Part shown: positions 9,001 through 12,000 of the stretch, piece after piece
Layout of the letters: the number at the start of each line of letters is the position of its first letter
How positions within the stretch are numbered: the first letter of the stretch is position 1
Source: a virus
Lineage: Duplodnaviria > Heunggongvirae > Uroviricota > Caudoviricetes
Reading direction: 5' to 3' (one strand)
Length of the DNA: 21,054 bases
IMG/VR virus record: IMGVR_UViG_2521172734_000008
Coordinates: 1-21,054 of that record
Made by a program: the position numbers

Positions 9001-12000
9001 TGGGATATTCCTGCCAGGCCTGTTCAAATTCCGGTGAATATTCCTGTCGGGCAGAACGCGCTGGTGCAGACGCGTCAGCGGATGCGCCAATATCTTGCGG
9101 TTCATGTTTTGAATTTACTGGTGGTTCATGTTTTAAACCTTGTGGATCTGGAGTCAGATTCTGAAGGGTCAAACGCGTATTTTTGCCAGAATCTGAAGGG
9201 TCAAACACGCCTGAACATACAGATTCTGACGGTTCAGATTTTGAAGGTTCAGAATCTGAAGGGTCACGTAATACTGAAAGTCTGCGCTGCTGTTTCAGTT
9301 CTGCAACCTTATCCCGCTCAGTTCTGGCAAGCTGCTCAAGCCGATCAGCATTCAGATGATAAAGATTGGACGTATTACGGTTACCTTTGCGGCGTGACTG
9401 ACGCGTCAGCCAGCCATCAGCCTCCAGTTCGGAGATTGCCGTTCTGACTGTACTTTCTCCCAATCCAAGCTGTCGACATATGGTTTCAACACCCGGGTAG
9501 CACACCCCGTCATCATTCGAATAATCAGCCAGGCGCGCCATAATCATCAGTTTTGCACCTTTGACGCCATATGCTGCGCATGCATCCCAGACATTACCGA
9601 GGATCTTGCTACTCATACGACACCTCCCAGACGCTTAAACATTTTTCCGGACTGAAACGCCACCAGCGGGTAACTCAGGGTATAAGTACGCCCCTGCACC
9701 TGGCAGACAACCTTCTGACTTTCTGCATTGACCAGGCAAACCCGCAGAACGAGGCCGTTGCTGGTGGTAAACCACTGCCCCACTCGGGGGCAACGGTTGT
9801 ATCGGTGATACAGGAAATTAACGATGTGGCGGATCATGGACGCACCTCCGCCGTAGTTACGTATTTAACCGGGCTACCTTTCATTGAGATGGTTTCACAC
9901 ATCTCTGCCGCTTTCAGTTCCGCTGTTTTTCTGGATTTATAGCGACGGTGCCAGACAGATACATCCGTGCGAACTGATACATCGTTTCTGTATTCCGTAG
10001 TGGAGATGATGATTTCGTAACTAATCATGGGCGAACCTCCTTGTCAGAACCATTCAGCCTGGAATCAACAAGTGCAGCGCCAAAAACAGCATCACCAACA
10101 CGGTCGTACAGTTTGCTAGCCAGCGGAGATTCAACGGCCTTAAGCATTGGATAAAGCTGGCTTGTCCAGATTTGATGGATTTCACGCAAATGCAGGTATA
10201 CGCCTCTGGCGTTTCGTGCGACAGCTGACATATCAACCGCGTCAGCACCAGATAAATTCTTCTCCATCTGGTTAAAGGCGTTGATGTATGCCTCTTTGAA
10301 CTGGGCAGCACGTTTACCAGTGAAGCCCATGGCAAGAAACGCAAAACCGTCGCGGGTGATTTGGTAACAAGGGAGTTTGCGGCCTGATGCGTCGGTGTAT
10401 TCACTTAACACAAAATTGTGTTCAGTAAATTCAGCGGAACATTCGAGGTTTCTAATTCTATCTAAAACCCGCTCATGCCGTTTAGTAAAGTAATTAGCTA
10501 CTGCAAGAGATGTGGTGACAACGCGACCATTGATAATCGTGATTTCAGGGCGAGATTGGGTTGGGAGAGTAGTCATGGTGACAGCCCCTATGTTGAATTC
10601 AATGAACTCACCACCAAGGCTTTCCACGACCATATAGGTGGTGAGACGTACAGGGGTGGAAATACCGGTCAACATAGAACCCGGCCCAACCGAAGTTGGC
10701 CCTGCACGCCCCACCATAATTTGGGCGTAACGATGCTCATGACACGAAAAAACCGCATGAGCGCGGTTGTGCTCTATATTGAATTTCGGGTTTCCACGCC
10801 CGGCACCCGCTTTATAAGGTGCAGAGACAGTGTAACGTCCCGAAATTGCAGAATCAATATTTGGTCTTGAAATGATCATATAGCTGCTGATATCTTTAGA
10901 ACTGTTCTTGGATGTTTCGGAGCCGTTTTATGCGAAACAGCTCCCCGTTATTGATGTTGAGTGAGCCGGGTTACTCCCGGCTTTTTTTCATCGCTGCCAA
11001 CCAATAACCTGAAATAACCCCATTTTCGGGTGATACCAGCGAGTCCCTCGCGGTTCTGCTTCCTCCATAACCCGATAAAAAGCAGCCATAAACGGTTCCA
11101 CAGCAACAATTGCGCGACGTGACAACAATCCGTCCGGCGTCATGAACTCATGGGTGTCTGTAGGAATCTGATAGGCGTTCACCAGATTGCGGCATTTATC
11201 ATCTGACAAACCGGTTTTTGCTTTCAGTTGGCGATATCCGGCATAGCCCTCACGAATAGTGCCCTTTTTAATTTGCTCGACTGTTTCAGCAACGTGGCTG
11301 ACTTTTTCTTCCACCTGAGTGATCCGTTTCTGTTGGCGAACGGCTTCAAGAGCCATCGCGGCAACCATTTCGATTTCGCTCATTGGCTTACGGATCTGTT
11401 CTTCCAGTTCGCGCCAGCGATCTACCAGGCGAGCAGTGAATTCAGGGCAGAGCTGTGCGACGACAATGATGCTGTCGCGCTTACCTTGTTCTCCTTCAAA
11501 CAGGTAATGCTCATATTGAACTTTAAAACCTAAGTTATTGATTTTCTCGGAAACAGCCATTGGCGGTTTCCGGATGATGTTTTTAGCAACCAGGCGTTCG
11601 ATACTACGTTTAACATCTGAGTGCTGACTACCCACCAGCTCTGCGATCTCAACGCTGGTCATGGATGCTTTGTCGTTAAAAATTGCGGTGTTCACTGCCA
11701 TCTCCTTACGGATAAATTCTTTTAAGATTCCGCACATTCGTACTTATTGGTGCCGAACCTTCCTTCAGTTATCCTTTTGATCCCTATAAACAAAAGAACC
11801 AAAGGAGGTTCGACATGAAAGTTCAGGCCGTTGGTTTATTCTGGTTTCGCGATGCGATTCAGTATCATGAGCTCAAAAATATTTTTACTGATGCTGATGT
11901 GCTCTCCGACAGTTACACCGAGTGGAAACACGACGCTGAAAAATTGATTAAGCGTGTCGAAAGAGGCGGGCAACGAGTTATTAAAGTTGAAGCGGATACA

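Follow-up and report, generated by a model that had tools for sequence, protein, structure and literature searches.

Several small RNAs are known to act on the regulatory regions of temperate phages. In phage lambda, OOP is a 77-nt RNA with its own extended -10 promoter, which is read against the early-right operon, carries a 5' hairpin and an intrinsic terminator and has its 3' end at the end of an upstream regulatory gene, cII. In phage P22, the small antisense RNA sar lies in immI between arc and ant, that is, within an antirepressor control region, where it is directed against the ant operon and ends in an intergenic terminator. In the systems represented by P1 c4, P4 CI and Gifsy-1 IsrK, the C4 RNA pairs with the target segments a2 and b2, leaving the antirepressor untranslated, and IsrK counteracts this effect. 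The present analysis concerns a stretch of phage DNA of 21,054 nt (positions 1 to 21,054 of the IMG/VR record IMGVR_UViG_2521172734_000008; hereafter referred to as the window), in which the gap of about 410 bp between two Rha-type genes holds an IsrK-C4 cassette on the minus strand and a compact promoter-hairpin-terminator unit on the plus strand. The latter is probably a new and previously unannotated phage cis-antisense small RNA (sRNA), and not an OOP homologue.

The window is a lambdoid prophage of Escherichia coli (E. coli) and shows 100% identity over the query with E. coli O111:H21 strain 15A. Its minus strand carries the early-right operon, in the order of a cro-like gene, a Rha/Ant-type gene (rha1), the gap, a second Rha-type gene (rha), two small open reading frames (ORFs), the replication genes and Q. 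The plus-strand unit lies in the part of the gap next to rha1, upstream of the inferred promoter of IsrK (PisrK), and its predicted features are as follows.

Positions 10867-10896, plus strand: promoter-like site with the -35 hexamer TTGAAA (10867-10872), an 18-nt spacer and the extended -10 element TG-a-TATCTT (10888-10896, the hexamer itself at 10891-10896), scoring 9/12 with the TG in the promoter scan
Positions 10903-10988, plus strand: predicted RNA of about 86 nt, its start placed 7 nt past the -10 element and its end at the run of seven T
Positions 10904-10913, plus strand: decamer GTTCTTGGAT, conserved in the sequence types A, B and C
Positions 10919-10944, strand of action ambiguous: central two-part hairpin, present in the minimum-energy fold
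Positions 10963-10988, plus strand: intrinsic terminator GAGCCGGG-uuacu-CCCGGCUU with its U run, abutting the rha1 stop codon

An oop-like antisense RNA had been proposed here by an earlier, sequence-only reading of the window, and the signals on which that proposal was based were all recovered. The sigma70 elements and their 18-nt spacing are present, with the TG of an extended -10 in addition; the second hairpin forms; and a start near 10903 gives a transcript of about 86 nt, where about 85 nt had been estimated. The promoter-like site is the sole plus-strand match in the 2.6 kb scanned, and the genuine lambda oop promoter attains an equal score (9/12 with the TG) in an identical scan. The terminator likewise agrees with the proposal, as a stem-loop at 10963-10983 of eight pairs, six of them G-C, with a 5-nt loop and seven T residues at 10982-10988. 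It is the strongest of the nine terminator-like sites in 9900-12500, where 3.3 were expected, and since the same hairpin is not followed by a U tract on the minus strand, it is a terminator on the plus strand only. It is fairly probable that a plus-strand transcript ends at 10988. No Rfam family scored above threshold for the plus-strand unit, the sub-threshold matches being terminator-driven only (sroD, 24.5 bits against 50), and the candidate RNA was not found by a sequence search of the full-text literature. A small plus-strand ORF within the unit was considered and rejected, its ATG at 10912 not being conserved in type C.

The comparison of related loci provides the main evidence that the unit is maintained. 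Of 5426 complete E. coli genomes, 222-237 contain the stretch 10859-10995, which was also found in nine deposited phages, Stx2a phages among them, in 36 metagenome contigs and in about 80 IMG/VR loci; the unit is complete in every locus recovered and always lies between the same rha1 and the IsrK cassette. The sequences belong to three types, A (represented by the window and by E. coli O111:H- 11128 and O55:H7 RM12579), B (represented by SE11) and C (represented by CFIAFB20180511), and no further types were obtained from pattern scans of IMG/VR, a metagenome scan or the E. coli searches. Between the types, an island of 80 bp (10880-10960) has diverged to 45-65% identity, whereas the flanks (rha1 and PisrK) retain 87-100%. 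All the types nevertheless keep, within or around this island, the -35 hexamer, the TG and the T-A-T---T of the -10 element, the length of the 18-nt spacer (its bases differ at 8 of 18 positions), the decamer GTTCTTGGAT with single-base variants in three loci, a GTTGAG motif, the whole terminator stem and 6-8 consecutive T. The promoter of types B and C reads TTGAAA/18/TG-g-TATTTT at the homologous site and is the sole promoter-like match in 600 bp, and the terminator was recovered by the scan at the homologous place.

The terminator stem is invariant while its loops vary, with one compensatory U-A to C-G change at the top of the stem in one locus (L019) and a C-to-U change in another (L119) that gives a G.U wobble on the plus strand only. 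The central hairpin, whose inner stem varies in sequence from type to type (GUUUU/GAAAC, ACUUC/GAAGU and CUGC/GCAG), is clear in two types and weak in the third. The full-length plus-strand folds have z-scores of -3.2 (A), -5.7 (B) and -3.8 (C) relative to shuffled sequences. A formal count of pairs was given up, as the MAFFT alignment left the arms of the hairpin and the terminator out of register between the types. The island may have diverged through an exchange of cassette-like character, or through diversifying selection that acts on the candidate RNA's body.

The retention of the signals within a diverged island, when the rest of the island is not retained, bears on the possibility that the unit has no function at all, the promoter match being due to chance and the terminator-like hairpin a relic of the junction between rha1 and the cassette. 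This explanation is improbable in view of the invariant stem with variable loops, the compensatory change and the completeness of the unit in every locus examined. It gains from the absence of enrichment of promoter-like sites in the region and from the narrow distribution of the unit, which is confined to E. coli-type lambdoid prophages and three types; moreover, the conservation may partly reflect recent shared ancestry, because the flanks have been homogenised by recombination.

The unit resembles OOP in architecture but does not belong to the OOP family. The resemblance suggested by the sequence-only reading holds for the compact arrangement of promoter, hairpin and terminator, which recurs in all three types: the RNA predicted for the window, at about 86 nt similar in size to the 77 nt of OOP, would likewise have its own extended -10 promoter, oppose the early-right operon, combine a 5' hairpin with an intrinsic terminator and have its 3' end where an upstream regulatory gene ends. 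It does not hold for homology, as local alignment with lambda oop gave a score of 16 against a null 95th percentile of 17 and no oop-like match was found anywhere in the window. The upstream gene is of the Rha/Ant type and not cII, as the earlier reading had itself recognised in calling it Rha-like. The overlap with its stop codon, also claimed there, is real but extends over one base only, 10988, the last T of the run being the first base of the TGA complement (10988-10990), in comparison with about 54-55 nt of the end of cII in lambda. Further, the unit adjoins an antirepressor cassette and lies 1.3 kb from the replication gene, whereas lambda oop abuts O, and it exists in three allelic types. 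Its predicted RNA resembles P22 sar in being small, antisense and situated within the control region of an antirepressor; sar, however, covers the ant ribosome-binding site, while here that of the antirepressor is covered in trans by the sense-strand C4 and the plus-strand RNA lies upstream of PisrK.

The plus-strand transcript may be proposed to work as an OOP-like cis-antisense RNA, with a rough probability of 0.45. An RNA of about 85 nt would be made in the lysogen and/or early after induction and would be fully complementary to the early-operon transcripts running from rha1 into the cassette. Its duplex with a read-through early transcript would be cleaved by RNase III, as with lambda OOP and cII, and the rha1 message would be uncoupled or destabilised. 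Transcription of the unit might also interfere, convergently or back-to-back, with incoming early transcription and with PisrK, the -35 hexamers of the two promoters lying 9 bp apart and hence back-to-back, and the terminator would keep plus-strand transcription from entering rha1 antisense. Neither operators in common with the cI-cro region nor a LexA box were seen near the two promoters, and no boxA-type nut signal was found near the unit on the operon strand. The decamer GTTCTTGGAT is a possible seed or binding site. If real, the plus-strand RNA would bring one more antisense regulator into the decision circuitry of this prophage family, among whose members are Stx2-converting phages, and would be placed exactly where early transcription enters the antirepressor cassette.

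It appears improbable that the 80-bp island is, beyond this, the specificity determinant of an allelic antisense RNA of at least three types, whose action in cis would be joined by one in trans among lambdoid prophages resident in the same host. Were this so, early transcripts would be cut or blocked before the antirepressor and the replication genes, and a second, OOP-like layer of RNA immunity would exist atop C4/IsrK, with the competition of the back-to-back promoters serving as the switch.

Several observations weigh against the cis-antisense reading. Promoter-like matches are not enriched in the region (2 found against 3.4 expected), and thus the promoter alone is not above chance; the conservation of the -10 element between the types would, by our own estimate, arise by chance in about 5% of cases; and, with no more than three independent types, the covariation statistics are weak. 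Taken alone, the type C central hairpin folds no better than shuffles (z-scores of -1.6 and -1.3). Since the RNA overlaps rha1 by 1 nt only, an OOP-like effect on the coding sequence is not obvious. Duplex scans of both strands of the window with the 5' region and the linker revealed no trans target and only the trivial cis site, the best non-cis duplex (-16.8 kcal/mol) being no better than those of shuffled queries (-16 to -23). Finally, type A has the better fold on the minus strand: either strand of the 86-nt stretch has a better fold than its shuffled versions, with a z-score of -5.9 for the minus and -3.2 for the plus strand, and of the four strand-informative single-nucleotide polymorphisms (SNPs) in the central hairpin, two, both in type A, favour the minus-strand fold, the other two favouring the plus strand.

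The last of these points is what would be expected if the hairpins act in the sense (minus-strand) transcript, either in the stability or processing of the 3' end of the rha1 mRNA or in a modification of the polymerase that would let it pass the IsrK terminator on transcripts of the early operon but not on those from PisrK. Early transcription does have to cross that terminator, type A forms the central hairpin (10944-10919) as a continuous 10-bp stem on the minus strand only, and the two type A SNPs form G.U on the minus but A.C on the plus strand. The conserved run of 6-8 U, which on the minus strand is an A run ahead of the hairpin, and the conserved promoter signals are nevertheless left unexplained; the remaining two SNPs of the central hairpin and the single informative SNP of the terminator stem favour the plus strand, on which types B and C also fold more stably. 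The put antiterminator RNA of phage HK022 is a pair of adjoining stem-loops that forms in the nascent transcript of the sense strand, ahead of the terminators that it overrides. A put-type RNA on the sense strand was rejected for the window, where two hairpins do precede the IsrK terminator but are separated by 18 unpaired nt. A role of the hairpins in the sense transcript is regarded as quite unlikely.

The place of the unit in related genomes suggests a link to one particular junction. In 13 homologues of rha1 from other genera, the next gene comes immediately after, and both the plus-strand unit and IsrK/C4 are absent; the distant homologues are longer by 2-4 residues at the C-terminus, and no hairpin follows their stop codon. 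In IsrK cassettes of other context (mEp460, ST64B, cdtI and Stx2a_1447), the place of the unit next to PisrK is taken by a small gene of about 60 codons, for which some RefSeq records give a DUF4222 protein. An association of the unit with rha1 in general, or with IsrK cassettes in general, was therefore rejected, and the unit is taken to belong to this rha1-cassette junction, where its T run sets the end of rha1. An insertion with an integrase-core-domain (transposase-like) gene was observed exactly between the back-to-back promoters in E. coli ETEC4090 (locus L021, about 95-1141), where it parts the unit and rha1 from the IsrK cassette.

The shortened C-terminus of rha1 suggests that the unit arrived together with the cassette, and is one of the facts that would fit an insulator and nothing more. 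Here the AT-rich PisrK region would fire divergently, the terminator would shield rha1 from antisense transcription and the short RNA would be without a target. The 9-bp separation of the back-to-back promoters, the position of the terminator exactly at the edge of rha1 and the lack of a trans target in the window agree with such a role. It leaves unexplained, however, why GTTCTTGGAT is conserved inside an island of 45-65% identity and why the central hairpin is retained with differing sequences, and it is considered unlikely, though less so than the other alternatives to a cis-antisense RNA.

The minus strand of the gap has a firmer interpretation. The sequence-only reading had described the gap as coding-poor and probably non-coding; this was correct with regard to protein (see below) but overlooked two RNA genes, both on the minus strand, which were identified at the gathering threshold by the Rfam scan that it had suggested. 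The features of this strand are listed below.

Positions 10829-10857, minus strand: inferred IsrK promoter PisrK, with TTGATT (10857-10852), 17 nt and TACACT (10834-10829), as read from the sequence
Positions 10746-10822, minus strand: IsrK sRNA (RF01394), 61.6 bits against a cutoff of 50
Positions 10797-10791, minus strand: b1 target GUGGAAA in IsrK, complementary to C4
Positions 10782-10771, minus strand: a1 target UCAAUAUAGAGC in IsrK, complementary to C4
Positions 10768-10751, minus strand: intrinsic terminator of IsrK itself, from the terminator scan
Positions 10634-10721, minus strand: C4/CI-type antisense RNA (RF01695), 82.4 bits against a cutoff of 45, full model 1-87
Positions 10680-10669, minus strand: a', the hairpin loop of C4
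Positions 10662-10656, minus strand: b', the single strand of C4 adjoining the a' hairpin
Positions 10627-10621, minus strand: b2 target GUGGAAA, downstream target of C4
Positions 10596-10586, minus strand: a2 target UCAACAUAGGG, downstream target of C4, overlapping the Shine-Dalgarno (SD) sequence of rha
Positions 10589-10585, minus strand: SD sequence AGGGG of rha, serving the ATG at 10576-10574
Positions 10025-10576, minus strand: rha, Rha-type antirepressor of 183 aa under the control of the cassette, with a Phage_pRha Pfam match

A weak Rfam match to c4-a1b1 also lies inside IsrK. PisrK has the right spacing to the 5' end of IsrK and is missing from the list of the promoter scan because it scores only 8/12. 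The pairing of a' in the window extends over 12 nt in IsrK and over 11 nt at the SD sequence, and that of b' over 7 nt at each place. A total of 71 distinct alleles of the cassette, in which PisrK is nearly invariant, were extracted from E. coli genomes, IMG/VR and metagenome contigs and were found to represent 23 a'/b' combinations. Each combination has cognate pairing, of 9-12 nt for a and 7 nt for b, both in IsrK and at the SD sequence, against non-cognate medians of 5-7 nt, and the ATG and SD sequence of rha are conserved in all alleles. The maintenance of cognate pairing across the alleles shows that the cassette is intact and that rha truly begins at the ATG at 10576, which has its SD sequence. 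Thus, the minus-strand content of the gap is a known C4/IsrK antisense cassette controlling the downstream Rha-type antirepressor, similar to P1/P7 C4, P4 CI and Gifsy-1 in its C4 and IsrK matches, its a1/b1 and a2/b2 targets and the position of a2 over the SD sequence of a Rha-type antirepressor. As judged by the arrangement, C4 would be excised from the transcript of its own target by RNase P processing. Belonging to known families, this content is not new; the larger part of the gap is accounted for by known RNAs, and the plus-strand unit is a plausible candidate for an addition to them that has support from sequence comparison.

The C4 system of E. coli prophages is modular, with at least nine a' loop types and at least five b' types, each matched in IsrK and at the SD sequence of the antirepressor. 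In some prophages two cassettes occur in tandem, as in locus L002, where an ash-type gene is followed by a rha gene.

The Gifsy-1 cassette has been studied as isrK-orf45-anrP (PMC4825925). In Gifsy-1 the AUG of orf45 lies at +107, and the corresponding AUG in the window at +106 (10717). The window differs in that the orf45-like frame has no stop codon and is fused to rha, and in that the upstream neighbour is a second Rha/Ant gene and not antQ; a divergent plus-strand unit is not mentioned in the parts of the Gifsy-1 report that were consulted. The mosaic boundary of the cassette lies at about 10858, where the Salmonella phage matches found also end, just short of the plus-strand unit.

The rha frame is open for 101 codons beyond the ATG at 10576-10574, giving an ORF of 284 aa (10025-10879) whose ATG at 10879 lacks an SD sequence, in agreement with the sequence-only reading. 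PGAP annotates the whole ORF as a Rha family phage regulatory protein, and its residues 16-111 match the Pfam family Phage_ASH (PF10554) with 34.7 bits against a cutoff of 26. These annotations, together with a frame that is open in 71/71 alleles with every indel a multiple of three, could be taken as evidence that the gap is coding and that the 284-aa ORF with its Ash domain is a real product. The comparison of the alleles makes this extremely unlikely. The ratio of nonsynonymous to synonymous substitution rates (dN/dS), a check that the sequence-only reading had proposed, has a median of 0.82 in the codons of the extension (12 diverse alleles), in contrast with 0.02-0.37 in the neighbouring rha1. 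Variable columns are distributed as 49/53/49 of 85 over codon positions 1/2/3, without codon periodicity, and the conserved SD sequence and ATG are those at 10589-10574. The segment matching Phage_ASH coincides exactly with IsrK plus C4 and varies by matched changes of the RNA type. A parallel is found in phage P4 (locus L161, 8330-8521), where Phage_ASH matches an obsolete "cI 137 aa" ORF lying right over the C4-family CI RNA. The 101-codon extension is, therefore, not a conserved protein but RNA conservation read as protein.

More generally, the IsrK plus C4/CI RNA locus (10547-10834, minus strand, in the window), when translated, appears to be the source of PF10554, of the PGAP "ash family protein" and of PHROG 821 in its N-terminal part. 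Since RefSeq, Pfam (Phage_ASH) and PHROGs treat this RNA locus as a protein domain, the control logic of the antirepressor is hidden in thousands of genome records. At least one published screen (PMC8628076) took the PF10554 profile as a marker for P4 epsilon, which is a different P4 protein and belongs to another family (PF25738). In the loci L023-L026, about 200 nt upstream of PisrK (mEp460, ST64B, cdtI and Stx2a_1447), the frame of the small gene enters the cassette without a stop codon, and the deposited annotations fuse the small gene, IsrK/C4 and rha into an antirepressor ORF of about 383 aa.

The invariably open frame remains an oddity. In IsrK systems the short leader ORF orf45 is coupled in translation to the antirepressor. 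Here the orf45-like AUG at 10717 runs for 47 codons in frame into the rha ATG without a stop codon, and translation from it would yield an N-terminally extended Rha isoform. As the frame is open through IsrK and C4 in all the alleles, the passage of ribosomes may matter though the amino acids do not.

The remaining genes of the regulatory and replication regions, as located in the window, are the following.

Positions 12500-13156, plus strand: repressor gene
Positions 12388-12179, minus strand: cro-like gene
Positions 10988-11695, minus strand: rha1, the upstream gene, a Rha-family regulator / Ant-type anti-repressor with the C-terminus ...IGWQR before the stop codon
Positions 9616-6383, minus strand: replication genes
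Positions 5085-4687, minus strand: Q antiterminator gene

The leftward genes are on the plus strand, like the repressor gene. Between cro and rha1, a plus-strand gene (11815-12108; phrog_4753, "bssS family" in one RefSeq record) opposes the early operon, and it is overlapped by a minus-strand ORF of 117 aa (11836-12189) that has no family match and could be mistaken for cII. On the 3' side of Q (4687-5085, minus strand), genes for tRNA-Met(cat), tRNA-Arg(tcg) and tRNA-Arg(tct) and the sRNA STnc100 (139 bits) lie at 2077-2590 on the minus strand, and a porin gene (3356-4498, plus strand) lies on the strand opposite to them; this arrangement of Q, tRNA genes, STnc100 and porin is typical of Stx-type lambdoid phages.

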